Below, piece after piece: positions 21,051 through 62,944 of a DNA stretch of 64,000 nt (the first letter of the stretch is position 1; each line of letters begins with the position of its first letter). The translations under genes were made by a program, and so were the position numbers. The stretch is taken from positions 177,452 through 241,451 of the forward strand of contig JBEKVV010000004.1 in assembly GCA_049513715.1 (NCBI GenBank). The letters run 5' to 3'. The notes under the pieces were generated by a model that did no database searches, was not told where the DNA came from, and was given only the letters and a program-made list of their open reading frames with translations. This DNA comes from Candidatus Bathyarchaeia archaeon (lineage in GTDB: Archaea; Thermoproteota; Bathyarchaeia; 40CM-2-53-6).

Positions 21051-21392
21051 TCACGTAATACTCGTTGAAATAACGTACGGCATACCCCTATAAACACTCA
21101 ACTTAACGGTTCTGTCAAGTCTGTGGTTGGTGTTGTCGTCTCGGTCGGGTGTAAATTTCCGTTTGGCAGGTACAGGCATTACCTCAAGCCACAGCACATC
21201 ATCGGCGAATGTTCGGGCATATATGACGGCGTGCCCCTCCTTTGATTTCATCTCGAAGTAGTATTGGATGGGTATGTTCTTGACTTGCATTAGTCTGGGC
21301 TTTCTGCTGCATTCGTGTGCTTCAAGTTGTTCTGCGATTAAGGTCTCTCCACACGTTTGACACTTTACCATGTTGCCGTGAATGTCAATCAT
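21051..21392 (-). CDS. Hypothetical passenger protein with CxxC..HxC motif; ORF reads through the left TIR
   Basis: CQTCGETLIAEQLEAHEC; probable ATG at 21392 (ORF track starts at 21458). Confidence 0.55.
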   Translation of the reverse strand: MIDIHGNMVKCQTCGETLIAEQLEAHECSRKPRLMQVKNIPIQYYFEMKSKEGHAVIYARTFADDVLWLEVMPVPAKRKFTPDRDDNTNHRLDRTVKLSVYRGMPYVISTSIT

Positions 21393-21975
21393 TTTTCTTC
21401 TCACCTCTTTCAAGACCTGTTGTAAACTTGTCTTTGTTGAGTTGGTCGAGGAAATCATGTTTCTCTTTCAAATCTTGGTAATCGGCTTTCAACTTTTGAA
21501 TCTCAACCTTAAGCTGCTCATTCTCTGTTCTCAGTGCCTTGTTCTCGCCTCGCAGATGATCAATGTCTGAATCAGATATTTCGTCGAGAACTCCTAGAAC
21601 TCGCGCTTGCTCCACAGCTTTGTTGAGGTAGTCCGTCATTCTAGAGAGCCCTGCATCCTCGCGATTGAACAGTATTCTGTAGTGATGTTTCCACTCATCA
21701 TCCGTTGCCTCTTTGAATTTCTGTAGGTGCTGCTCGCGAGCATTTCTGAGTTCCTTGAAGTCTGCAATCAGGTCGCCAAGCAGTTTCGCGAGGTTTACAC
21801 GGTCTCTCATGTCGAGCTGGTTGGGATTTTCAACCTCATGTTTCGCTGCTTCTGGTTTGACCTTAGTTAAGTGCGCGTCATATCTTCTACAAAACTCCGA
21901 CGCTGTATTGAGTGATGCTTCCACTATTATTGAGTGGAGTTCCAACAGGCTATCACTTGTGTTTCGGTTTTGCAT
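21385..21975 (-). CDS. Hypothetical coiled-coil passenger protein
   Basis: 196 aa ORF with C-terminal heptad repeats; overlaps neighbouring ORFs. Confidence 0.6.
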   Translation of the reverse strand: MQNRNTSDSLLELHSIIVEASLNTASEFCRRYDAHLTKVKPEAAKHEVENPNQLDMRDRVNLAKLLGDLIADFKELRNAREQHLQKFKEATDDEWKHHYRILFNREDAGLSRMTDYLNKAVEQARVLGVLDEISDSDIDHLRGENKALRTENEQLKVEIQKLKADYQDLKEKHDFLDQLNKDKFTTGLERGEKKND

Positions 21976-22165
21976 TTTTGGCTGGGGCTTGAGGAAGTGG
22001 AGCTTTGCGTACTATTGCTATTCGTTCTCCGCTTTGTACGTCCATTCGCCATTCGAGTTTGTCGCCTTCCGTGAGTTGGAGGAACGCTACCATGCCTTCT
22101 GGTACGGTTGCGCGAAGCGACTTAGCCCCTGTTCTTGCTATTCCCACTGTAGATTGTAGGCTCAT
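21953..22165 (-). CDS. AbrB/SpoVT-like DNA-binding protein
   Basis: SLRATVPEGMVAFLQLTEGDKLEW; divergent from the transposase. Confidence 0.75.
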   Translation of the reverse strand: MSLQSTVGIARTGAKSLRATVPEGMVAFLQLTEGDKLEWRMDVQSGERIAIVRKAPLPQAPAKNAKPKHK

Positions 22166-22304
22166 AGCTGCTAGGTATGTGGATTGTAGTTCTTAAATTT
22201 ACCTACCAGAGCGCACTTAGGGCGTATGGTAGAGCGATAGATGTGTAGATGTGTTTTAATACCAGATGTATACAATATGTAGGTAGATAGGAAGGCGCAC
22301 CGAT

Positions 22305-23447
22305 ATGATGGCTATAACACGAGAACTCAGGGGCAAAGAAATAGCGGCTGCACCCAACCAAATCGAGCGTGTTGGCAATGTTTCGTACAAAGTGAAGTCT
22401 CAATCGGGTAACGGCTGCTATGATGTTACATTCTCGACTGTGAATGGTTGGGATTGCACTTGCCCCGACCATGTATTCCGCTTGGTGGAGTGTAAGCACA
22501 TTTGGGCCGTAATGTGCAGCTTCGCCATCAGAAAGGAAGTTGAAGCCAACGTAATCGAACCGATAGTAGATGTTCACGCTTGCGTATTCTGCAAATCTGA
22601 AAATCTCATACGATTTGGTTTGAGACATAACAAGTGCGGCGATCTACAGAAGTTCTCCTGCAAGTCATGCGGAAAAATATTCACGGTAAATCTGGGTTTC
22701 GAGCGCATGAAGCACAATCCACAAGGAATCACAACCGCTATGCAACTCTACTTCAGCGGAGAAAGTCTACGGAACGTAGCCAAATCACTCAAGCTAATCG
22801 GCGTTCAAGTAAGCCACCAAACGGTCTACAACTGGATATCTAAATACACCACCCTAATGGAAAAGTACCTAGACAAAATCACTCCACAGGTCGGCAATAC
22901 TTGGAGAGCCGATGAACTATTCCTCAAAGTCAAAGGGAACATGAAGTATCTCTACGCCCTCATGGACGACCAAACACGATTCTGGATAGCACAAGAAGTA
23001 ATGAACACCAAATACGTTGCAGATGTTCAACCGCTATTTGCAGAAGGCAAACGCAGAACAGGCATAGAACCAAAATACATCATAACTGACGGTGCAAGAA
23101 ATTATGACAAAGCGATTCGGAAAGAGTTTCACGGCAACTTCCGCTACGCTGGCCCGAAACACATTCGGGACATCAGATTCGATGGAACAACCCACAACAA
23201 CAAAATGGAACGCATGAATGGAGAAATCCGAGACCGAGAAAAAGTCATGCGGTCACTCAAGAAAGCGGACACGCCAATCCTAACAGGGCTCCAAATCTAT
23301 CACAACTACGTGCGCCCACACATGGGCTTAAATGGAAAGACACCCGCAGACCTATCGGGAATAACCATCCAAGGTAACGACAAATGGTTGACAATGATAC
23401 AAAACGCTGCACAGCGCACCCCAAGGGAGAAGAAAAGTGAAAGTTAG
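22305..23447 (+). CDS. IS6-family DDE transposase with N-terminal SWIM finger and Zn ribbon
   Basis: CTCPDH..CKHIWAV (SWIM), CVFC..CKSC, HTH SHQTVYNWI, WRADE / ITDG / NNKMERMN. Confidence 0.9.
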   Translation: MMAITRELRGKEIAAAPNQIERVGNVSYKVKSQSGNGCYDVTFSTVNGWDCTCPDHVFRLVECKHIWAVMCSFAIRKEVEANVIEPIVDVHACVFCKSENLIRFGLRHNKCGDLQKFSCKSCGKIFTVNLGFERMKHNPQGITTAMQLYFSGESLRNVAKSLKLIGVQVSHQTVYNWISKYTTLMEKYLDKITPQVGNTWRADELFLKVKGNMKYLYALMDDQTRFWIAQEVMNTKYVADVQPLFAEGKRRTGIEPKYIITDGARNYDKAIRKEFHGNFRYAGPKHIRDIRFDGTTHNNKMERMNGEIRDREKVMRSLKKADTPILTGLQIYHNYVRPHMGLNGKTPADLSGITIQGNDKWLTMIQNAAQRTPREKKSES

Positions 23448-23778
23448 CGCAACTGGCATAGAGGCCACATCCGAACCTACAGACAAAGAGTTCGAGGGTC
23501 TCCTTAGAGATGAATTGAAGAGATACTTGCAAGAAAAACTTGGAGCTATGAAAACAATCAAACTAGATAGAACTCAGAGTTTCGACCTCAAGACCGTGAG
23601 GCTGAAAATGTCGGAACAAATCACCAAGCCTGAGTTCGCCTCAGTTGTTGCTGCCTATGTCTCGCTACTGTCACAAGAGAAGCAGGCAAGAACGAACATG
23701 ATGCTGGAAGGGATGATGCTTCTGCTTACTGGCGCAAGTGTGTTAATCTTGATAGTGCAACTTTTTGGTCACCGCTGA
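23437..23778 (+). CDS. Hypothetical passenger protein with C-terminal TM helix
   Basis: Overlaps the transposase stop; hydrophobic C-terminus. Confidence 0.55.
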   Translation: MKVSATGIEATSEPTDKEFEGLLRDELKRYLQEKLGAMKTIKLDRTQSFDLKTVRLKMSEQITKPEFASVVAAYVSLLSQEKQARTNMMLEGMMLLLTGASVLILIVQLFGHR

Positions 23779-23854
23779 GTCCCGAAGACGAAACAGAACC
23801 GAGGAAATAGTTCTTTTTAGGCAGCCATGTTGGTCTTTCCTCTGGGAAGCAACA

Positions 23855-24112
23855 ATGCCGAAAGTCACCTTCAAGGTTCACAAGGCAGGATTTCAGCCGG
23901 AAACAGAGGATTTGACCAGATTAGTGGATAAAGAAGTGGAACTGTCAGAGCTGAACGCTAAACGTTTCTTACTAGACCCACATCAAGAGACGCTGTGGGA
24001 CACTTGCCGATTCTCTGAAACTAAGTTGCCCTTTGACGAGTGGTTGACAAAGTGCGGCAACTGGAATAATGAAACGAAAATGTTCCAAGTTACAAGAACC
24101 CCGTCAAGGTAA
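23855..24112 (+). CDS. Hypothetical passenger protein
   Basis: ATG at 23855 (MPKVTFKVHK...); ends just before the right TIR. Confidence 0.5.
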   Translation: MPKVTFKVHKAGFQPETEDLTRLVDKEVELSELNAKRFLLDPHQETLWDTCRFSETKLPFDEWLTKCGNWNNETKMFQVTRTPSR

Positions 24113-24362
24113 GCCCACCAAACGAAAGTTGACAGCCCTAAGAATCACTCTTACCAACCATAGACTTGACAGTACCAACTTAACGGTTCTGTTAAGTTCT
24201 AGGATGTTGGTTCGACTGTTAAGCATCGGGTGATGCCCCCTATCTTAGACTATTAGTTGTTTGTTTAGTCGGCTCTGTTCGGTTTATGGCTGTTCGATGA
24301 AGCTGTTCGGGCATCGGTGGATGTCCATTCAGAACACCCTGTATCGTGCGCACAAAAATCAT

Positions 24363-24406
24363 GGTTCAAATTTGGCTGCCCGCACCAGTAGACCCACACA
24401 CACGAA
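24363..24406 (+). repeat. CGCACCA-core repeat A1 (tRNA-3'-like left arm, CACACACAC right arm)
   Basis: GGTTCAAATTTGGCTGCCCGCACCAGTAGACCCACACACACGAA. Confidence 0.75.
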
Positions 24407-24423
24407 AGACCCAAGCTGTTGCC

Positions 24424-25122
24424 CTACTTCTCTACAGCGACTTCGAACTTATCGCTGACTTTCAAGTGATGCCATCGTGAGTCAAAGCCTACGTTGCGCA
24501 TATTTCTGACTCGGATGAGGTTCCGAGTCTCGTCACCTGCTTCCTCAAGTTTGAAATCGACGGTGCCATCTAGCGCAGCCTCCAGCTGTTTGCATGCCCA
24601 GTCACTATGAACGCCTCTGATAATTCCCATGATTCCTATTTCTCCTCCCGGGAGGACCGCTGGAATGGCTCGGGTGAGCGCGAACTCGACCCACGCTTTC
24701 TCATCGTTGAATCTGGCTATTGTCGAAAAGTTGTCCACGATGTTCAGCCAAGCCCCGGTGGGTGGACCTTTCAGGAATTGCGAGAACCAGATGCTCAGAT
24801 CTGCGACCCTCAATGAATCACGCGCGAACTTCTCCTGGGACTTTCGGCCAAGCGTGACCGTGTACCAGTCGATGATTCTCAGAAGGTCATCTCTTTCGAG
24901 AACATCTGTATTCAGTCCTAACTGTTTCAGTCGCAAGCGAACCTTGTCAGGAGGTTGAGTGCTAACATAGTACGCGAGGGGGCCTCCAGTTCTTAGCCAT
25001 TCAGCCGCGATTGTTAGGGAGGCATTGTACCATTGCGATGATGCGTCATACTCCACCAGGATAGAAGAACCGGGCTGAATTGGCCCAGTGGTCAAATCTT
25101 CGATTAACGGAATCTTGGGCAC
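24424..25122 (-). CDS. RAD55/KaiC-like RecA-fold protein with degenerate Walker A
   Basis: Probable GTG start at 25122 (VPKIPLIEDL); EYDASSQW at the Walker A position; DGTVDFKL..RVRNMR C-terminus. Confidence 0.7.
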   Translation of the reverse strand: MPKIPLIEDLTTGPIQPGSSILVEYDASSQWYNASLTIAAEWLRTGGPLAYYVSTQPPDKVRLRLKQLGLNTDVLERDDLLRIIDWYTVTLGRKSQEKFARDSLRVADLSIWFSQFLKGPPTGAWLNIVDNFSTIARFNDEKAWVEFALTRAIPAVLPGGEIGIMGIIRGVHSDWACKQLEAALDGTVDFKLEEAGDETRNLIRVRNMRNVGFDSRWHHLKVSDKFEVAVEK

Positions 25123-25174
25123 GGCATAAACACAGAAACAGGATGGAAGGAACTGCAAGTTGTGGCTTTTGGTT

Positions 25175-25206
25175 GTGTGTGTGGGAATGGTGGTGCGCAC
25201 GCACAC
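25175..25206 (-). repeat. CGCACCA-core repeat A2
   Basis: Reverse complement GTGTGCGTGCGCACCACCATTCCCACACACAC. Confidence 0.7.
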
Positions 25207-25275
25207 TTTTTCCAACGACGGACGATGACGATTCGTTTTCAGAAGTACTGCACAAACAAGAACAATGATCGGTGG

Positions 25276-25473
25276 CTATTGCGGTCGTTCGCCTATTTCT
25301 AGGTGAACGAGCTTGTTCCAGTGTCGTTGGCCACAGATAGGGCATTTGACATAATACCATGCGTAGCCGGGAATTCCTCCGATGCCTGCTCTCGCTCCGA
25401 TAATCCAGCCGGTCTTTTCGAATGAAGTGCGACATTTGGCACATAGCAGGGTCCATTTCGGGGGCAATTTCAC
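25276..25473 (-). CDS. Small Zn-ribbon protein
   Basis: CAKC...YYVKCPICGQRHW. Confidence 0.6.
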   Translation of the reverse strand: MKLPPKWTLLCAKCRTSFEKTGWIIGARAGIGGIPGYAWYYVKCPICGQRHWNKLVHLEIGERPQ

Positions 25474-25587
25474 TAGCTCTTTGTTTTCGAATGGGCGTCT
25501 GCGCGCAATTAGCGTTACTTCGTCTAGTCGTGTGCGGCTACCAGTGGGGGGGGAGCACCATAATTTGAACGGTCGTTTCAGGCGTTT

Positions 25588-25627
25588 TTCGTGTGTGTGC
25601 GCACCACAACTAGGCCACTAACACAAA
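25588..25627 (+). repeat. CGCACCA-core repeat A3
   Basis: TTCGTGTGTGTGCGCACCACAACTAGGCCACTAACACAAA. Confidence 0.75.
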
Positions 25628-25657
25628 GTCATACGAAAACCGTTAGACTCATTCTGA

Positions 25658-26500
25658 CTAGACTGAATGAGGGCGGCTTGAATATGCCCCGCTCAGCGAG
25701 GATTTTCTAGTCCTCCTCAAGAAAGTCGCCACGACTAAGAGTGCTAATAAGAGAACTGGCACAACTTCGGGGAATTCGGAAATTGGCACCGACGTAGTCT
25801 GCAGACTACCCCAAGTACTTGGAATCTTGAAGTTCGCATCGCCGGGATAATCAGCCGCGAGGTCGGTGTGAGTGGCGTCTTTCATGTAAAGATAGAGACC
25901 GATTGTTCCAGGAACATGCGTCTTCAAGCTTGCAAAAGCCAGGGCAATTCGCGCTTCTACGATCATGTGAGTTGTTTTTGAATTCGGAGAGAAGCTGTAC
26001 GATAGTGCCGCCTTGATGTCAGTGCCTGTGTACGTAGTCCAGTCGGTCCAGCCCCCGGAGCTTGTTCCTTCAGAGGCATAGATATTGACCAGAAATCCTC
26101 CGACATCAGCGAAGTCCAAGCGATACACATTCTGATTCAGTGAGTTTGACTTCTGATTTGACGGATCTAGGTACATACCGACCTCATTCCGATCGTCGGT
26201 CCCGCCGTAAGGAGCTTGGCAGCCAACGAAATCCCAAACAACATACAAGTAGTTCGAATCGTACTTCGCCGCGAAGTATCCTACAATCCCAGAGACTCCG
26301 GCCTCCATGGGGAGGGCAATTGTATCACTCCATTCCTTCGCCGTCGTATACGTTCCGTCAAGTATAACCAGATTGACGAGTGGATACAGAACGAGCGTCC
26401 CTTGTGAGTGCGCGTGAGGAATTTGTATGGCGAGAAACAGTATGGCTACGATAGCCAGTTTGGCCACGCGTAATTTCATGCTACGCCGCCAGATTCTCAA
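25658..26500 (-). CDS. Secreted/cell-surface protein with PEF-CTERM-like anchor (possible DOMON/CBM9-like domain)
   Basis: Signal peptide, LDG..EWSD, AKYDSNYLYV; C-terminal ISEFP, TM helix and RRTRK. Confidence 0.65.
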   Translation of the reverse strand: MRIWRRSMKLRVAKLAIVAILFLAIQIPHAHSQGTLVLYPLVNLVILDGTYTTAKEWSDTIALPMEAGVSGIVGYFAAKYDSNYLYVVWDFVGCQAPYGGTDDRNEVGMYLDPSNQKSNSLNQNVYRLDFADVGGFLVNIYASEGTSSGGWTDWTTYTGTDIKAALSYSFSPNSKTTHMIVEARIALAFASLKTHVPGTIGLYLYMKDATHTDLAADYPGDANFKIPSTWGSLQTTSVPISEFPEVVPVLLLALLVVATFLRRTRKSSLSGAYSSRPHSV

Positions 26501-26575
26501 GTAAATTCCTAAAGCCGTTAAAAGCCTTCTCGTGTGCGTACTGTATTACAAGACACCAATATTGGATCGCAATTC

Positions 26576-26622
26576 TTCGTGTGTGTGCGCACCATTAGAC
26601 CCGCGCCCACAAGATTTGAACC
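26576..26622 (+). repeat. CGCACCA-core repeat A4
   Basis: TTCGTGTGTGTGCGCACCATTAGACCCGCGCCCACAAGATTTGAACC. Confidence 0.75.
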
Positions 26623-26681
26623 TGACATAGCCGCGATGGGAATTAGCCCAACGTTATGACAGAACGCACACATAGCCTGAG

Positions 26682-27143
26682 TTAGGCGTCTCTCTTTTCA
26701 TCTTTGTAGTTACTTTCCGCTTGGGTCTTGAGGTTTCGCAACCACGTATCCAGCGAATTATCGAGAAACTTTGGCATTATGAGTTTCAACAACCTAACCG
26801 ACCAGCCTTCCATGGACTCTTCTGTCGTAACCAGCGTGCCGTTGTTTTGCGGTGTGAATTTCCAAATATGTTTGGCTTGGGCACCCAGCGATTTGCCTGT
26901 CCAGCCAATCAAGTCATTCGGCTCGAGCACTTGGACAGTGGAAGTTACATTCAGACCCCCGGTTCTCCACCGAAAGACAGAGCCGACGGCGAGAGGGCTT
27001 CCGAGCTTGGATGCTGTTGTGGCAGGTTGCCACTTACTCCAATTGTTGATGTCTGTTTGGATGTTCCAGACGGTTTGAGGCGGCGCCTCGATGAAGATAT
27101 CCTTGTGGGCGAACAAGGGAGCATCCTTATTGACTTCCATCAA
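26682..27143 (-). CDS. SRPBCC/START-family protein
   Basis: IFIEAPPQTVW..DINNWSKWQP; HIWKF..GTLVTTEE. Confidence 0.85.
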   Translation of the reverse strand: MMEVNKDAPLFAHKDIFIEAPPQTVWNIQTDINNWSKWQPATTASKLGSPLAVGSVFRWRTGGLNVTSTVQVLEPNDLIGWTGKSLGAQAKHIWKFTPQNNGTLVTTEESMEGWSVRLLKLIMPKFLDNSLDTWLRNLKTQAESNYKDEKRDA

Positions 27144-27146
27144 TTT

Positions 27147-27422
27147 TCACTCTGTTCGCTGTCCGTGTTGCCGCCGAGATATGAAGCGTGTGTGCGCACC
27201 AGTAGACCTCCTGTATCGTGGACGCCAATACAGATAGTTGATTGCTATTGCGAGTGTCGCGGGAACAATGATTGCAAAAACCATTACAGGCACAACATTC
27301 CATGTCGCTCCGAACTTCTGTATCAGCAGAATCGCCGTCACCACTGAAATCGACACAGTAACGGCGCTCACGATAAGCAATCTAGCAACGAGACTTATCA
27401 TATGCTCCTTTGACTTTGTCAT
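27147..27422 (-). CDS. Small two-TM membrane protein
   Basis: Two hydrophobic segments; 3' end runs through repeat A5. Confidence 0.5.
   Translation of the reverse strand: MTKSKEHMISLVARLLIVSAVTVSISVVTAILLIQKFGATWNVVPVMVFAIIVPATLAIAINYLYWRPRYRRSTGAHTRFISRRQHGQRTE
27187..27208 (+). repeat. CGCACCA-core repeat A5
   Basis: CGTGTGTGCGCACCAGTAGACC. Confidence 0.65.
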
Positions 27423-27599
27423 TCGGCCTCACTTCTCCTTCTGCTCTTCTTCCCTACATTCCATGTTTGATATCCACCGAAGGTTAACAACAATGCCAAA
27501 GGCTCATCCACTTAACAGAACCAACTTAACAGGAGGCAGCTTTCCAATGTTGGAAAACGTGTTGGCGCTTAATAGTGCGATTCTTCTCTCCGACCACGC

Positions 27600-53186: not shown

Positions 53187-53242
53187 CACAGATCTACCGT
53201 TAAATTGTGGTATGCTTGCCTCCGATTTCATGATAAGGAGCC

Positions 53243-53290
53243 TATATGTACCGGTAAATTGGGGTTGAAATCCCCTTCTCCATCTCTGAG
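53243..53290 (+). repeat. Repeat B1
   Basis: TATATGTACCGGTAAATTGGGGTTGAAATCCCCTTCTCCATCTCTGAG. Confidence 0.9.
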
Positions 53291-53500
53291 GATTGGAGTC
53301 AGGGTTGTATCGGCTAGATGCCTAGATAATCGAACGAACTTGTGTGTAGTCTTCTTCTCGAAAGGAACGTTCTTGACTCAATCCTGTGTCGGGGCCTGAC
53401 AGGTTCGCGTAATAGCTGCCCTGCCGCTCTATGATCCGTTGGCTGTGAAGTTGCGAGCAAAGTTGGTATTCGTCGTTCACCAAGATTGTAACGGTATCCA

Positions 53501-54106
53501 GTGTCATCCTCATTCTCTTCAAGGCTCGAGAGCAGGTTGGGTATTCACCAGCGACCACTCAAAGAACAATTAGCTGTAGTTATCTACCGAATTCGAACTC
53601 AACGCAACAAGATCGAATCCATGAACCTAATGATGCAGCATCGCGACAAGGAGTTCTTCGACAAATGTGTCGCAGCCCGCTCCGTAGGCGACATGCCACG
53701 CGCCAACCTCTACGCGGAGGAATGCGCTGAGGTCAGGAAGATGGCTAAAATCGCCCTAAACTCCGAACTTGCACTGGAACAGTTGATCTTCAAACTCGAG
53801 ACGGCTGAAATGATGGGCGACATAGCTTACTTGGTCCACCCAATCAAGAGCGTGGTTGCCTCCGTTGGACAGCAAATTCAACAAATGATGCCTGACGTCT
53901 CCTTCGAGCTAAATCAAATCAATGAAAGCCTGGAAGGCATAGTCGTCAACGCTGGTGAGGTGACGGAAAGCATGGCGCCCGCAGGTTTCCAATCGCCTGA
54001 AGCGGATAAGATAATGCAAGAAGCTGACACGCTCGCTGAGCAGAAGATAAAATCCAGATTCCCAGAACTCCACCCCATCCCCACCGCTGAATCCACAGGT
54101 AGCTGA
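53501..54106 (+). CDS. ESCRT-III/Snf7 (CdvB-like) paralogue
   Basis: RDKEFFDKCV..RANLYAEECAEVRKMAK..LALEQ..KLET..EADKIMQEA..FPEL. Confidence 0.85.
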   Translation: MSSSFSSRLESRLGIHQRPLKEQLAVVIYRIRTQRNKIESMNLMMQHRDKEFFDKCVAARSVGDMPRANLYAEECAEVRKMAKIALNSELALEQLIFKLETAEMMGDIAYLVHPIKSVVASVGQQIQQMMPDVSFELNQINESLEGIVVNAGEVTESMAPAGFQSPEADKIMQEADTLAEQKIKSRFPELHPIPTAESTGS

Positions 54107-54154
54107 AAAGAGCCTAGCTTAGCCTAAGCCCTAGGGGACCTACGCGACTCACTC

Positions 54155-54202
54155 TATATGCACCGGTAAATTGGTGCTGAAATCCCCTGCTCCACCGCTG
54201 AG
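54155..54202 (+). repeat. Repeat B2
   Basis: TATATGCACCGGTAAATTGGTGCTGAAATCCCCTGCTCCACCGCTGAG. Confidence 0.9.
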
Positions 54203-54301
54203 CTCAACTGAGATAAGATAGTGGGCGTATTGGATTTGCTTCTTCGTAGAGACTGAATTCAACGGACTTGATTCGGTCTGCAAGGCAGGGATACTGAAAC
54301 A

Positions 54302-54649
54302 ATGCCTAAGGTGCTTTTTGTCTGTACAGCCAATCTTCAACGAAGTCCTACTGCAAAGGACCTCTTTCAAAACTGGAATGGAGTATGGGAAACGGAATCG
54401 GCGGGAACAATGCCCTTGCCGGGACGCAACGATTTGACTCAACAGCTAGTCGACTGGGCGGACTTAATCATAGTTATGGAACCACACCACGCCGAACACA
54501 TTCAAACTCATTTCAAAACCAATCCAGACAAGATCAAAGTACTGAACATACCTGACAGATACTTCCGCAACGAACCTGAACTCGTTCAAGAACTCAAGAA
54601 CAAAGTCACCCCAATTCTCGAAACCTGGAAGCCCAATTCCAAACTCTAG
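54302..54649 (+). CDS. Low-molecular-weight phosphotyrosine phosphatase-like protein
   Basis: VLFVCTANLQRSPTA, ESAG, WADLIIVME, LNIPD. Confidence 0.88.
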   Translation: MPKVLFVCTANLQRSPTAKDLFQNWNGVWETESAGTMPLPGRNDLTQQLVDWADLIIVMEPHHAEHIQTHFKTNPDKIKVLNIPDRYFRNEPELVQELKNKVTPILETWKPNSKL

Positions 54650-54659
54650 AAAGAGGAGG

Positions 54660-54696
54660 AAATTGGGGCCAAAATCCCCTGTTAGATCTCTGAGGA
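54660..54696 (+). repeat. Repeat B3 (5'-truncated)
   Basis: AAATTGGGGCCAAAATCCCCTGTTAGATCTCTGAGGA. Confidence 0.75.
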
Positions 54697-54782
54697 CTGA
54701 CAAAGGGACCTGTGGATCTCATTGTTGGCATCGAAGTGCTACAAGTAAATCCTACGATATTCCGTGATCGAGAGGAGTCCCG

Positions 54783-55226
54783 ATGTCAGAAGCTTACAGG
54801 TCTAGTGTTAGATTGTATTGGATGGCGAAAGAAACAGATGAACCAAACCGGGCGTTTAATGTCGAGTCCGCAAGGCTGTCCGTTCATGAGAACTATCACA
54901 ACTGCCTGAGAATTCTGGCCATTTACAGCAGGACGCATGGAGGTTCAGTTGTGGCGCATGGAATATGGGGTGGCCGCAAAATACTGGGGCTTGGATTCCA
55001 AGGTAAGAACGTGACAATTGGAGTTGTGCAAGGAAGCCGTATCGAGCGAGGAATAACACACGAGATTAGGAATCCCTATGATCTAAGAAGGTACCTGGAA
55101 AACACGGTAGGTTTTTCAGTAGCGAATCTCAACGAACGGACCTTCGAAAAGGCCTTGGAGCAATTGAAGAAGATCGAATCTGAATGGAACATCGAGATTT
55201 CTCCTGAGGAAACCAAGAAATGGTAG
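54783..55226 (+). CDS. Hypothetical protein
   Basis: 147 aa ORF between repeats B3 and B4; no recognisable motif. Confidence 0.55.
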   Translation: MSEAYRSSVRLYWMAKETDEPNRAFNVESARLSVHENYHNCLRILAIYSRTHGGSVVAHGIWGGRKILGLGFQGKNVTIGVVQGSRIERGITHEIRNPYDLRRYLENTVGFSVANLNERTFEKALEQLKKIESEWNIEISPEETKKW

Positions 55227-55295
55227 CCCACAACTCCCGCAGCGACTTTTCCAGCAAAGACCTCAAGCACTGACATTCCTGACTACCGGCTGATC

Positions 55296-55336
55296 TGTAC
55301 CGGTAAATTGGGGTCAGAATCTCCTCCCCCGCACCA
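55296..55336 (+). repeat. Repeat B4 (ends in CCCCCGCACCA)
   Basis: TGTACCGGTAAATTGGGGTCAGAATCTCCTCCCCCGCACCA. Confidence 0.85.
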
Positions 55337-55611
55337 AAATGAAAAATGAAAATAATACTGGCCTGTGAGACCTGCAGCCCAAAGAGAGGACACCATATTC
55401 ATTGGTGCAAACGCTTTTCGTAGTTTCCATTGTTTTCCGGAGGTCACTAAGAACACTGGGCTATGCTTGGTTTTCATTTCGATGGACGTGTGATTCTCTT
55501 TCGTGGAGTTGCACAGAAAGCCCTCTATATTGAGAACATTTCCCCTAATCAAGAGCTGCAATGCCGCGTCTGTGTTCTTGTAGGCAGGGCACATTGGAAG
55601 GTTGACGGAAA

Positions 55612-57495
55612 TTGGTGTACGGGTATAATGGCAAGATAGCCCGAGTGAACCTTCAAGCGCGGACCATGAAGGTTGAGAACCCGGACGATGCAGTGTATAA
55701 ACAATATCTTGGCGGAAGAGGGCTAGGCGCGTATTATTTGTTCCGCGAGCTTACCCCGAAAATTGATCCGTTGGGACATGAGAATATCATTATTGTGGCT
55801 CCGAGCGTTATCACGGGAATTCCCATCGCTGGAATGTCTAGGTGTAGTATAGTCTCGAAATCGCCGTTGACAGGTACCTACGGTGAGACGGAAGCTGGCG
55901 GATTTTTCGGCGCAGAACTGAAAGCCGCAGGATTCGACGCGCTGATCATCGAAGGTCGGTCAGAGAAACCTGTTTACTTGTTCGTGCATGATGGAGAGAT
56001 AGACTTCAACGACGCCTCAACCATGTGGGGCAAGACGACTAAAGATGCTCAAACCGAAATACGCGAGCAAGTGAAAGACCGACACGCTCGCATCGACCTG
56101 ATTGGCCCGGCAGGCGAGAACCTTGTTCGATACGCATGCGTACTCAACGAGCTAAAATTCGCGCATGGCCGCGGTGGTCTCGGCGCCGTGATGGGTTCAA
56201 AGAAACTAAAAGCAATCGCAGCCCGTGGAACTAAGAAACCTGAACTAGAGGATCCAGAGGCGATCCAACAAATTGCGAGGTGGATGGCGTCTCATTGGAA
56301 AGAGTTTCCTGGAGCTCTTACACGAAGTTCCCTTGGCACAGCCGATGCCGTGTTGCCCTTGAACGCCTTGGGCATACTGCCCACGAGAAACTTCCAAGGC
56401 GGGTTCTTCGAGCAGGCCTCAGCCGTGTCGGGACAGAAGATGGCCGAGACCATATTGACTCGAACCGATGGTTGTTACGCGTGCCAGATCAGGTGCAAGA
56501 GAGAAGTCACCGCGACCGAACCCTACGAAACCGAGCCTGAATATGGTGGCCCAGAATATGAAACAATAGTGGCTTTTGGTCCACTCTGCGACGTAGGCGA
56601 TTTGGGCGCGGTGTCGAAAGCGAATGAACTCTGCAATAGTTACGGGTTGGACACGATAAGTACTGGGAGCTCAATAGCGTTCGCTATAGAATGTTACGAG
56701 AACGGACTGTTAACCAAGACGGACACTGACGGTTTAGAACTGAACTGGGGAAACGCAGACGCAATCCTTCAACTAATCGACATGATAGCACATCGCCGGG
56801 GCATAGGAATCCTGCTCGGGGAAGGAGTCAAACGAGCCTCTGAAAAAATCGGGAAGGGCTCGAATCGATTCGCGCTTCACACGAAGGGAAAGGAGCTAGC
56901 TATGCATGACCCACGCGGCAAAACTGGAGTCGGCATAGGATACGCTGTGTCCCCCTCAGGGGCAGATCATATGCAGGCAGCACATGATCCCGTTTTTGGT
57001 AAGCCAACTAAATTCATGGAAATGGCAGGGATAACCGCGACTGTCGACACGCGTGACTTGGGCCCTGACAAGGTTAGAGCGTTCTTGTACGCACACCTGT
57101 GGTGGGGATTACTCGACTGTCTCGGGGCATGTAAGTTCGTATTCATCCCACACAATGCTGGCGTTCTAGACACGCAGCAACTCGTTGACATGGTCAATGC
57201 CTCAACGGGTTGGCAGATGAGCCTATGGAGCCTGATGAAGGCCAGTGAACGAGCCTTGAACCTGGCACGCGCATTCAATGTGCGGGAAGGATTCACCGCA
57301 TCCGACGACACATTACCCCCAAGGCTATTTGAGGAGATTCAGTTCGGCCCCAGCAAAGGCGCTAAGATCGACCGAGAACAATTCCAAAACGCGTTGCATC
57401 AATACTATGAGATGATGGGTTGGGATCGAATCACTGGTGCACCTACGGCCACAAAACTTCTTGAACTCGGACTTGGCTGGACCATCAATTCTTGA
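55612..57495 (+). CDS. aor: Tungsten-containing aldehyde:ferredoxin oxidoreductase family
   Basis: YLGGRG, KSPLTG, IGPAGEN, GRGGLGAVMGSK, CYACQIRC, PEYET, DTIS. Confidence 0.93.
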   Translation: MVYGYNGKIARVNLQARTMKVENPDDAVYKQYLGGRGLGAYYLFRELTPKIDPLGHENIIIVAPSVITGIPIAGMSRCSIVSKSPLTGTYGETEAGGFFGAELKAAGFDALIIEGRSEKPVYLFVHDGEIDFNDASTMWGKTTKDAQTEIREQVKDRHARIDLIGPAGENLVRYACVLNELKFAHGRGGLGAVMGSKKLKAIAARGTKKPELEDPEAIQQIARWMASHWKEFPGALTRSSLGTADAVLPLNALGILPTRNFQGGFFEQASAVSGQKMAETILTRTDGCYACQIRCKREVTATEPYETEPEYGGPEYETIVAFGPLCDVGDLGAVSKANELCNSYGLDTISTGSSIAFAIECYENGLLTKTDTDGLELNWGNADAILQLIDMIAHRRGIGILLGEGVKRASEKIGKGSNRFALHTKGKELAMHDPRGKTGVGIGYAVSPSGADHMQAAHDPVFGKPTKFMEMAGITATVDTRDLGPDKVRAFLYAHLWWGLLDCLGACKFVFIPHNAGVLDTQQLVDMVNASTGWQMSLWSLMKASERALNLARAFNVREGFTASDDTLPPRLFEEIQFGPSKGAKIDREQFQNALHQYYEMMGWDRITGAPTATKLLELGLGWTINS

Positions 57496-57631
57496 TGCAT
57501 AAAATTGCGTTGATGTAATGTATCGGCGAATGCCCCCTTAAATTATAGCATACTTCAAGAAACAACGACGATTCAAGCGGATTCAGTCTAGCCATGTTTC
57601 GTTCAGTTCTTCGCGATTTCCATCAATGGCT

Positions 57632-57678
57632 TATATGTACTGGTAAATTGGCGCTGAAATCCCCTGCCCCATCTCTGA
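57632..57678 (+). repeat. Repeat B5
   Basis: TATATGTACTGGTAAATTGGCGCTGAAATCCCCTGCCCCATCTCTGA. Confidence 0.9.
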
Positions 57679-57679
57679 T

Positions 57680-58840
57680 TCAACTCTCTGCTTCTTCCGG
57701 TTTAATCTTTAGAACAAGAAGTGCACTAGCGAATAGAGCGGATGAACCCACTAAGAAAATGGACACGGGGCTGAAGGTGTTCCAGACAAACCCCAAGACC
57801 AGAGGACCAATAATGAAACCTAGGTCTTCAAAGGACCCGTACATTCCTATTGCTGTGCCGTGTGATTTGTCGAATGTGATTTCTGGAATTACGGCCAGGA
57901 GAAGTGAGAGCGCAGCAAGCCCCAAGGACACGAGCACCGATACCAGGAATAACTGGTCCTGAGTTCTTGCTACCAGATAGAAAAGAAACATCCCAGAAGA
58001 TGATAGAAGTCCGACCCCGGCTATTCTTCGTCTCCCAAACTTGTCCGACAACCACCCGAACAACGGCATCGCCGCTAACTGCGCCGCATAGATAATACTG
58101 AGAAGTAGGCCAACCTGAACGGTTGACATGTTCATTTGCTCTAACACGTAAAGCGGCAGGAAGGATTTCACCAACGACAGCGCGATGAACCCGAAAACTG
58201 CCGAGAGAAACAGAAAGCCTGCCGAGCGCATATGAAAGGTCGACCTAACACGAGGCGCATCTTGCACAGTCGCACGCGGCTTTGACTTTGGGAGAGTGAA
58301 CATTATGATACAAGCTAACACTAGAGCCAACGCAGACGACGCATAGAATGAACAGCTGAACGAGCAAGATGCAGCTAGATATGCGCCAACCAACGGGCCT
58401 ATTATGCGCCCCAATGTCGAAAATGACCACCACAGACTTGCGAACAATCCGACCGATTTCAGCGGTGACTCATCGGACACATAGGCTCTGGTTGTGGGCC
58501 CCAAAGCTACACCGACTACGCCCCAAGAGAACTGCACGAAGATGAAATAGGGAACAAGTGACCTGACTGTATACAACGGGAAGATGATGCTCATCCCTAG
58601 AACGGAGAGAAACATGAGGAGCCGTCGATCAACTCGGTCAGAGATTCTACCCCAAATCCATTCGAACAGGAACATGCCGAGCGCGGCTGATGTGGCGAGA
58701 AAACTCCAATCGACAACCCCTATTCCCAGCGATTGAACATAAAGAGGTAATATTGGCCCGTTAACAGAAGCACTGGTCAAGACGCTCCACAAAAGAAGGA
58801 TCAGATAGATTGGCAACATTCGACAAAGGTTGCGGTTCAA
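57680..58840 (-). CDS. MFS transporter
   Basis: WGRISDRVDRR and GWLSDKFGRRR motif A copies; about 12 TM helices. Confidence 0.9.
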   Translation of the reverse strand: MNRNLCRMLPIYLILLLWSVLTSASVNGPILPLYVQSLGIGVVDWSFLATSAALGMFLFEWIWGRISDRVDRRLLMFLSVLGMSIIFPLYTVRSLVPYFIFVQFSWGVVGVALGPTTRAYVSDESPLKSVGLFASLWWSFSTLGRIIGPLVGAYLAASCSFSCSFYASSALALVLACIIMFTLPKSKPRATVQDAPRVRSTFHMRSAGFLFLSAVFGFIALSLVKSFLPLYVLEQMNMSTVQVGLLLSIIYAAQLAAMPLFGWLSDKFGRRRIAGVGLLSSSGMFLFYLVARTQDQLFLVSVLVSLGLAALSLLLAVIPEITFDKSHGTAIGMYGSFEDLGFIIGPLVLGFVWNTFSPVSIFLVGSSALFASALLVLKIKPEEAES

Positions 58841-59137
58841 GTGCTTTCATGTCCTGGATCGGATCTGTGAGCCCTAGGATCCCATGCTTGGTTCGGAGAC
58901 ATGATTCGATGTGTGTCGGGGGACGGTCAGATCTAAGTGCCTTCCTTGGTTCGGAGCATTCGTATCTTCAATAGCCCAAGCTAATCTCGACTGCTCTCTG
59001 ACTTTGTCAGCTTCATCTTGCCTAAATCGGCGGCAAGAGTTTAAGTGAATCATAAATGCTCCCAAAATATGATGTAGAGAATAAAGAGTAGCTGTGATTC
59101 CTTAGGCATTCGATATGAGCAAAGTCCACACTCTGCT

Positions 59138-59184
59138 TATATGTACCGGTAAATTGGGGCTGAAATCCCCTACCCCATCTCTGA
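59138..59184 (+). repeat. Repeat B6
   Basis: TATATGTACCGGTAAATTGGGGCTGAAATCCCCTACCCCATCTCTGA. Confidence 0.9.
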
Positions 59185-62400: not shown

Positions 62401-62494
62401 GGTGTGTGTGGTATCAGTGGTGCGCACACCACACAAAACCGACTGAACTTACGGTTCAATTCTGGACGCCCGCACCAAGAGAATCACACACACC
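62401..62494. repeat. CGCACCA-core repeats A6 (minus strand) and A7 (plus strand)
   Basis: GGTGTGTGTGGTATCAGTGGTGCGCACACCACAC; GGTTCAATTCTGGACGCCCGCACCAAGAGAATCACACACACC. Confidence 0.7.
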
Positions 62495-62622
62495 GATGCA
62501 TGCTGCTCGCTTCGCTCGCATAACCAACCAAAATCCATCCAAAATGCAGCTCATCTTATCCAGCAGACTGAGGTTCAGATCCAGCGCCGTCTAGCTCGCA
62601 TGATTAAGTCGTTGATCTCATG

Positions 62623-62817
62623 CTAGTCTAGTTCCGGATGCTTCTTCGTGTATCGGCAACCGCAGACTGCACAGCCATGAAATCCTGAGTGAAATCGACG
62701 CAAATGATGACAAACATCACAGCACGAATCTCGATGAGCTGTCCAATGATGTTCATGAAGTTGGTCGTTTGATCGAAATATCTTAGCTGGTTGACACAGT
62801 TTACAATAGTGGCTCAT
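62623..62817 (-). CDS. Small Cys/His-rich Zn-finger protein
   Basis: CKLC..F..L.EHHW..H (C2H2-like) plus CDVCHH..H..CAVCGC. Confidence 0.55.
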   Translation of the reverse strand: MSHYCKLCQPAKIFRSNDQLHEHHWTAHRDSCCDVCHHLRRFHSGFHGCAVCGCRYTKKHPELD

Positions 62818-62918
62818 TGATTGAAACCAAACCTCAATCCAAACTCAACCCGCCACCTGCCTGTTTATTGCTTTCGCTAATTAGGCGGCCAAGTTTCAGT
62901 TTTCTGGGGGGGTACTAA

Positions 62919-62944
62919 TGGTGCGGGCGACTGAATTTGAACTC
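62919..62944 (-). repeat. CGCACCA-core repeat A8 (tRNA-3'-like)
   Basis: Reverse complement GAGTTCAAATTCAGTCGCCCGCACCA followed by TTAGTACCC. Confidence 0.7.

Follow-up and report, generated by a model that had tools for sequence, protein, structure and literature searches.

The window analysed here, a stretch of 64,000 nucleotides on contig C4 of a Candidatus Bathyarchaeia archaeon genome (G000; 2.79 Mb in 11 contigs), contains a series of small genes that are separated by copies of a short repeat with the core CGCACCA, and this raises the question of what made the repeats and how the genes came to lie between them. A preliminary description of the window read the repeats as products of att-type recombination. 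Its account of the copies themselves holds: all five are present, with cores at 24381 (+), 25191-25197 (−), 25600, 26588 and 27195 (+), and they separate open reading frames (ORFs) for KaiC/RAD55-like, Cys-pair, secreted-type, SRPBCC and membrane proteins, the last copy being overlapped by the membrane-protein ORF. Recombination at a fixed 7-base core is not what the junctions show; their geometry is instead that of inverted ends with a 14-base duplication. The junctions very likely owe their origin to a casposase, a Cas1-family transposase, and the window array probably consists of four small modules without an enzyme of their own, stacked in a host gene, whose junctions are casposase target duplications plus short inverted ends and whose targets are self-carried. 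The features of the array are as follows.

24338..24348, no strand: left copy of the 11-base host duplication CCTGTATCGTG, which flanks the whole insert; two copies in the window, a single one at empty sites.
24349..24358, +: short variant inverted end CGCACAAAAA, which starts the insert; the empty-site alignment stops exactly here, and CGCACAC is a frequent end variant in relatives.
24363..24380, +: leader ("landing pad"), a mimic of the tRNA T-loop (GGTTCAAAT) plus 9 bases; identified by spacing and conserved positions.
24381..24394, +: left 14-base target copy CGCACCAGTAGACC; same sequence as 27195-27208.
24395..24408, +: inverted end CACACACACGAAAG, the start of the 2.8-kb composite and of module 1; from sequence and end profile.
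24424..25128, −: cargo 1, KaiC/RAD55-like ATPase gene; Pfam PF06745, E 4e-6.
25175..25206, −: junction of end, 14-mer CGCACCACCATTCC (25184-25197, minus strand) and end; from sequence.
25277..25456, −: cargo 2, small Cys-pair gene, putatively Zn-ribbon-like from its Cys pairs; frame open to 25046, no match in Pfam.
25586..25613, +: end TTTTCGTGTGTGTG and 14-mer CGCACCACAACTAG, then a decayed end; from sequence.
25658..26500, −: cargo 3, gene for a secreted/surface-type protein; no match in Pfam or NCBIfam and no homologue among the fetched loci.
26573..26613, +: end, 14-mer CGCACCATTAGACC (26588-26601) and a decayed end; from sequence.
26682..27143, −: cargo 4, SRPBCC gene; PF10604, E 6e-18.
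27187..27208, +: short end CGTGTGTG and right 14-base target copy CGCACCAGTAGACC (27195-27208); from sequence.
27210..27220, no strand: right copy of the 11-base host duplication; from sequence and empty sites.
27147..27422, −: interrupted membrane-protein gene, which now reads into the insert; from comparison with G014 and G004.

The right arms beyond cores 25600 and 26588 are decayed, and core 27195 has no right arm. Scans of the window for tRNAs and Rfam families found no family, so that the leader at 24363 lies outside any tRNA gene.

The insertion itself can be read from relatives that carry the host gene without it (G-numbers denote genomes and L-numbers fetched loci). Position 24348 of the window is joined directly to 27210 at two loci of G014 and in G004, G001 and G013, giving empty sites in four relatives, and the inserted block is 24349-27209 (~2.9 kb), placed in the last codons of the membrane-protein gene. 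The 11-base host sequence is single at the empty sites (with some base differences in G004, G001 and G013) and double in the window (at 24338 and 27210). At the empty sites of G014 and G004 the protein ends in WRPRYRVL followed by the stop codon; in the window, 21 residues lie beyond WRPRYR. Inside the insert, a short end and the leader are followed by the 2.8-kb composite, which is bounded by identical 14-mers at 24381 and 27195. A duplication of 12 bases with CG as part of the element end, as first read from the host junction, was overturned by the paired 14-mers of relatives.

Three of the four cargo genes have homologues beside other sites in relatives. Among the 15 KaiC-like homologues in fetched loci, which were partly chosen for carrying sites, sites flank 8 on both sides and 3 on one side only. 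DNA homologues of cargo 2 occur in other contexts in G013 (twice), G018, G002 and G016, and G013 also has a copy of the cargo 4 DNA (88% identical) that adjoins a different site. Presence or absence of genes in relatives is bounded at the sites, as the preliminary description had anticipated, without the att-type crossover at a 7-base core. In four metagenome runs, each possibly the source of the assembly, the array lies at flat depth, and in two of the four a single contig covers 22970-27239 without difference. Some reads join 24403 to 26579, with 24 bases on their shorter side, and were taken as other repeat copies. A search for 14-mers that stand back to back, as at the right junction of the window, turned up no other clear example.

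The same sites recur throughout the genome. They were searched with position-weight matrices trained on G000, and the counts include ordinary tRNA ends. The bare CGCACCA 7-mer is mildly enriched in the window, with 14 occurrences against 7.95 expected (14 was reached by 1 of 100 shuffles). With arms, 126 sites scored at least 24 in G000, compared with 1 in the reversed genome. At a score of at least 22 there are 136 sites, of which 42 have a tRNA-like left arm plus a right arm and 23 a GTGTG left arm plus a right arm; the remaining sites have the left arm alone (30 tRNA-like and 26 GTGTG), the right arm alone (14) or no arm (1). All arm combinations of the swapped-arm proposal are thus found genome-wide, the sites bound mobile modules, and real tRNA 3′ ends are used; the core, described as invariant, is exactly CGCACCA in 93 of the 136 sites.

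A strict site pattern, which had zero matches in a reversed control, was found in 18 of 22 genus genomes, 0 of 2 others in the family and 2 of 16 from the order's other families. A search for the end-14-end pattern in one genome of each species returned 68 loci, of which 61 are labelled Bathyarchaeia, 3 are labelled archaeon and 4 are short contigs with a bacterial label, which may be mis-binned. A second cluster of the same family lies in the window at 62402..62943, with cores at 62424 (−), 62471 (+) and 62925 (−), the first two back to back. In 9 of the 11 contigs of G000 a site lies within ~2.7 kb of at least one contig end, and array numbers are therefore probably under-counted by short-read assemblies. 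The sole match among viral contigs is one site near the end of L170, a 51.7-kb contig of a viral collection.

Profiles of the sites show that reverse-complementing the right arm, CACACACAC(G)AAAA, gives the left arm, TTTT(C)GTGTGTGTG; the two are therefore one element end viewed from two sides. The pairing noted in the preliminary description is real in that the right arm complements the GTGTG arm, and mistaken in treating it as a separate arm. Between the ends lie 14 bases, CGCACCA plus 7 semi-variable ones, so that the unit is 14 and not 7, and this unit adjoins either short inverted ends (CACACAC/GTGTGTG) or a tRNA-like leader. The inverted ends are of low complexity and ~9-15 bases long, compared with 25-602 bases in the founding casposon set. 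Other end types share the same 14-mers: CCGCCG-type ends around casposase elements, and a GGGG(A)TAT start as in classic casposons, which follows a 14-mer at three loci of relatives (loci with other end types are L200:8591-15749, L196, L193, L243, L191 and L098). Segments with an end on both sides measure 135-4362 bases in G000 (n = 23), with a median of 1053 in relatives (n = 132), and mostly carry one or two unrelated genes.

The leaders resemble tRNA 3′ ends in a selective manner. In 39 of 40 tRNA-like left arms, GGTTCAAAT stands exactly 9 bases ahead of the core, a tRNA-like spacing. Most leaders are not tRNAs: no more than 3 of the 5 T-stem pairs survive in 38 of 53 in G000 and in 139 of 162 in relatives. 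The T-stem has largely gone, whereas conservation at positions −17 to −12 is 92-99%. The 70 bases upstream of the leader mimic include an end in 21 of 38 cases in G000 (at a distance of 34-53 bases) and in 86 of 139 in relatives, compared with 0 of 10 (G000) and 0 of 7 (relatives) for tRNA-like leaders and 3.9% for random windows. Real tRNA 3′ ends also serve as targets: at 10 of 38 genus loci, judged by eye, an end follows the tRNA 3′ end plus 7 bases. Most tRNA genes of G000 are intron-bearing and mislabelled by ARAGORN, and the targeted tRNAs ending GGCGGCCGCACCA, which it calls Val and Pyl, are presumably Gly.

Whether the 14-mers behave as target duplications was examined by pairs in relatives (loci L063-L210, with duplicates dropped by their 65-base context; the pairs overlap and are not independent). 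The whole 14-mer is identical in 22 of 205 same-strand unit-enclosing pairs and in 6 of 197 wrong-order pairs (Fisher p = 0.003). All-versus-all identity is 1.9% of pairs, rare 14-mers are among the identical enclosing pairs, and the same 14-mer occurs three times in a row in L198, L090, L095 and L137. Within the assembly, a segment that begins at an end tip has two different flanks (99.5% identity) and ~2x the depth of its neighbour in 4 of 4 runs, which suggests recent movement, and a 784-base module plus its flank is present at two places with 97.6% identity.

A candidate for the enzyme behind these junctions is present in relatives. A search of the genus for Cas1 gave matches in 12 of 22 genomes, with up to 11 in one. 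The closest solved structure is the Methanosarcina mazei casposase 6OPM (E 7e-71, residues 9-404), followed by Cas1 at 3e-25. Twelve casposase copies are 41-73% identical to the first and retain E171, H240 and E257, which we take to be the catalytic residues. Cas2 was found in 0 of 5 casposase-bearing genomes tested, and no cas gene was found among the scanned casposase neighbours, a scan that did not extend to CRISPR arrays. Relatives have casposase genes of 404-414 amino acids (aa) within units bounded by sites, and one full-length gene lies at L198:11170-12399 (minus strand). Among 20 full-length loci, a site is no more than 7 kb away in 16, and 10 are bounded on both sides in the fetched DNA. 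Three of these 10 lie between identical same-strand 14-mers, in units of 8.6, 7.2 and 17.5 kb; one of the three has CCGCCG-type ends, and end types therefore vary. In G000 itself, C-terminal casposase fragments remain at 5 places. Four of these are no more than 2.5 kb from a site, as is 7.7% of the genome; the Pfam Cas1 profile has no match in G000, and the fragments were detected by a profile built from relatives.

The polymerase of classic casposons was not found in these units: 60 ORFs from 12 casposase loci gave no match to PolB (one 373-aa ORF of L089 was outside the Pfam scan), and in four casposase units bounded on both sides the longest ORF is 404-410 aa. PolB matches in the genus (G149 being outside the search) are on other contigs, far off or beyond the closing site; in G017:C5, a PolB lies 26 kb from a casposase for which the search gave no closing site. 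Matches to HNH (one), HEAT-repeat (one) and helix-turn-helix (HTH; three) proteins occur beside different casposases, never together. Common to 7-9 of the 20 casposase loci, in several genera, is a three-gene block (L198:13518-15173 and eight others) encoding an MCM-like ATPase, a basic protein of 125-150 aa and a protein of ~109-150 aa with primase-like motifs, and this block may have a role in replication. Seven of the 20 loci carry the ATPase. The predicted fold of a 290-aa protein of the block resembles the MCM ATPase domain (pLDDT 68; Foldseek E 2e-6, TM 0.57). The 109-aa protein has DxD and SxKGxH-like motifs, which in our judgement resemble those of archaeo-eukaryotic primases and are the sole basis of the primase-like label; a fold search returned generic small alpha/beta proteins (best Z 6.3) with no primase among the matches listed, and there was no useful match in PDB or PHROGs.

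The accessible parts of the casposase literature describe junctions of the same construction. Published casposases read an upstream T-loop motif, cut one strand at CGCA and the other 14-15 bases further along, and join the 3′ ends of the element, duplicating the 14-mer. The M. mazei enzyme makes a 14-base duplication starting with CGCA and requires bases 12-17 upstream (PMC6977970), and that of Aciduliprofundum boonei requires TCAAATC 8 bases upstream (PMC6614799, PMC5137440). The conserved leader positions coincide with both needs (bp 12-17 in M. mazei; TCAAATC, 8 bp upstream, in A. boonei). Tandem casposons and solo ends are known (PMC4779613, PMC6563490), and a synthetic mini-casposon made of ends and target copies only inserted in tandem in vivo, its excision leaving one target (PMC10359463).

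As far as the accessible texts go, the M. mazei elements of family 2 (6OPM; PMC6977970, PMC4779613, PMC10359463) share with the present sites the CGCA-starting 14-base duplication, a tRNA 3′ end target with an upstream motif, a casposase with a C-terminal extension and tandem insertion at one target. They are elements of 6-16 kb at few loci, with PolB, HNH, two HTH genes (one with HEAT repeats) and ends of at least 25 bases, whereas here there are ~100 sites per genome, enzyme-less modules of ~1 kb with unrelated cargo, ends that differ at the tip and measure ~9-15 bases, mixed orientation, leader mimics just inside the ends and casposase elements in which PolB was not found. The founding definition includes PolB and ends of 25-602 bases, with family 2 sizes of 6-16 kb (PMC4046053, in the part available), and by the gene-content definition of family 2 the window modules are outside it. 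AciBoo-C1 of A. boonei (PMC5137440, PMC6614799) is similar in its 14-15-base duplication, its tRNA end and its TCAAATC, which stands at the same distance as TCAAAT(T) here; it is one complete PolB-carrying element with GGGGA-type ends, and cargo modules or internal targets are not described in the accessible text. Cas1-solo genes mostly without PolB and without HTH have been proposed as casposase family 5 (PMC9755687); as described in the part of that source available, they come from hot springs, have no C-terminal HTH and are placed close to type I-A Cas1 in the tree, with no description there of target duplication, tRNA target or cassette arrays, whereas the enzyme found here aligns with 6OPM through the C-terminal region.

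On these grounds, the modules are predicted to be moved by a casposase acting in trans, such that any DNA flanked by two CACACAC ends would be movable. The leader mimic that lies 34-53 bases inside many ends would offer a fresh target, insertions would nest, and arrays would extend away from tRNA genes through such nesting. In the window, a unit of end plus leader would have entered the membrane-protein gene first, and the 2.8-kb composite would then have entered that unit. Opposite 14-mers could arise from casposase-driven inversions, or from ends bringing their own 14-mer. Beyond the window, we consider it possible, and hold it only tentatively, that this is a working Cas1-driven gene-capture platform, in which a PolB-less casposon lineage (MCM-like ATPase, primase-like protein) supplies casposase to hundreds of 1-kb modules with tRNA-mimic targets.

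Several observations weigh against the stacked-module account. The pair test is weak in G000 itself (3 of 32 vs. 1 of 18; 3 of 43 exact vs. 1 of 28 in its first version). In relatives just 8 of 62 adjacent same-orientation modules have identical 14-mers, and most adjacent 14-mers differ. The 14-mers have opposite orientation in 70 of 132 modules of relatives and in 15 of 23 in G000, which is incompatible with plain duplication. In the window, the host duplication is 11 bases rather than 14, and the right copy has no abutting inverted end. The array is intact in all four runs, with empty-site joins solely on low-depth, divergent contigs; with the flat depth, this gives no sign of excision at present. 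As to the enzyme, no intact casposase was found in G000 and no casposase gene in the window modules, 4 of the 20 casposase loci have no site in the fetched DNA, and the site-rich genomes G012, G016, G018 and G021 gave no Cas1 match (G021 has a C-terminal fragment). Finally, the dominant ends, GTGTG-3′, are unlike the TCCCC-3′ required by the A. boonei enzyme.

The non-identical and inverted 14-mers would be accounted for, together with the shared 7-base consensus, if the casposase recombined DNA conservatively: by cutting two 14-mers with a stagger, it would free a circle with one 14-mer, which would re-enter elsewhere in either orientation and replace the resident 14-mer. This explanation, which differs from stacked insertion with target duplication in junction chemistry alone, has a precedent in M. 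mazei, where excision leaves one target and one in vivo insertion of the mini-casposon had its own target reverse-complemented, possibly as an artefact according to the authors (PMC10359463, accessible part). The circle was not detected in the M. mazei study. Identical rare 14-mers around units (L137, L112 and L140) together with the host duplication show true duplication, and behind a tRNA end, G006 and G010, one with an element and one without, have the same 7-mer (tRNAs putatively orthologous). We regard a conservative mechanism as unlikely, while giving it some weight.

Rather improbable, in our assessment, is that the same enzyme left the sites as passive debris, with decayed casposons and solo ends between which small genes were trapped by deletion or inversion, the modules being immobile and the mimics leftovers. 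Solo ends are known in M. mazei, the clusters are strewn with casposase fragments, many ends are decayed, most neighbouring 14-mers differ, and excision was not seen in the four runs. Debris would not be expected to include enzyme-less units of 0.5-2 kb with intact ends and identical 14-mers (L119, L140, L145, L095 and G000:C5) or one module present twice with identity from the end tip, and the mimics retain the recognition positions while losing the T-stem, which suggests selection as targets.

A tyrosine recombinase swapping arms at the CGCACCA core to give attB/attP/attL/attR products, as in pdif modules or tandem tRNA islands, is very improbable. Every arm combination is indeed present, orientation is mixed, and the genome has two tyrosine recombinases. 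Neither of the two tracks the sites across relatives: of the 22 genus genomes, 10 gave a match to one and 13 to the other, mostly distant, with none in G014, G016 or G018, and G018 (98% complete, 19 strict sites) has no PF00589 match, where a genome gap or a divergent enzyme is possible. Tyrosine recombinase spacers measure 6-8 bases, half of the 14-base spacer here, and the identity of paired ends spans 14 bases, not 7. Integrons, clusters of attC sites lacking integron-integrases (CALINs) and Xer-pdif modules likewise hold single varied accessory genes between repeated sites, with the enzyme in trans and, for pdif, mixed orientation, and their tyrosine recombinases act on attC hairpins or 28-base dif sites without duplicating the target; the present sites are duplicated tRNA-type targets and are associated with a Cas1 homologue. 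That another transposase (IS110/IS1111 or DDE) made the sites and casposases just inserted in the same regions is scarcely credible, since, apart from an IS6-type transposase 0.9 kb away with ends unrelated to the sites, G000 has no match to PF01548 of the IS110/IS1111 (DEDD) enzymes, none of 93 proteins near sites matches a transposase or recombinase family, and casposase genes themselves are enclosed by these ends and identical 14-mers.

An insertion sequence and a second repeat family are also present in the window. The former, an IS6-family element, occupies 21108-24176 and has its inverted ends at 21108-21131 and 24153-24176, with a DDE transposase at 22305-23447; copies of related ends lie at 27505 and 36704. 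The preliminary description had placed the array in a larger "unit 2" that might carry gene cassettes; the gene modules stand, and the bounds of that unit are IS6-type ends unrelated to the sites. Repeat B4 has six copies at 53240-59184 and 43 genome-wide, compared with 0 in a reversed control. At the T-loop, tRNA 3′ ends in reverse orientation can take the place of its left half, and B4 too separates single genes. A 319-aa integrase adjoins a tRNA end with a B4 arm (G000:C5:218588-220123), and B4 may be a separate tyrosine-integrase att family. The link once suggested between the families goes as far as their common use of tRNA 3′ ends; the B4 core at 55330 is a tRNA-type tail that is not followed by a CACAC end. 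At three loci a B4 arm lies directly ahead of a casposase-type leader. A further tyrosine integrase, of 369 aa with a C-terminal zinc ribbon (L002:6961-8070, in G000:C1), is patchy in the genus and is flanked by CTP synthase and a restriction-modification-like block.

CRISPR adaptation has been proposed to descend from casposons, which have been described as rare, large and polymerase-carrying. In the literature searched, which was mostly open-access, we found no description of such arrays or of Bathyarchaeia casposons; supplements of casposon papers may list small elements. If the present explanation is true, one casposon lineage has turned into a genus-wide shuffler of accessory genes, whose arrays have the order leader, repeat, insert, repeat, and hundreds of natural junctions become available for studying casposon excision or copying and array building by a Cas1 transposase. 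A casposase whose ends are very short and whose portable target spans 32 bases could, in addition, be considered as a tool for site-specific insertion. If, further, the gene-capture platform is true, arrays would seed themselves anywhere in the chromosome, forming an analogue of integrons that works with the chemistry of CRISPR adaptation and a living model for how casposons could have given rise to CRISPR arrays.

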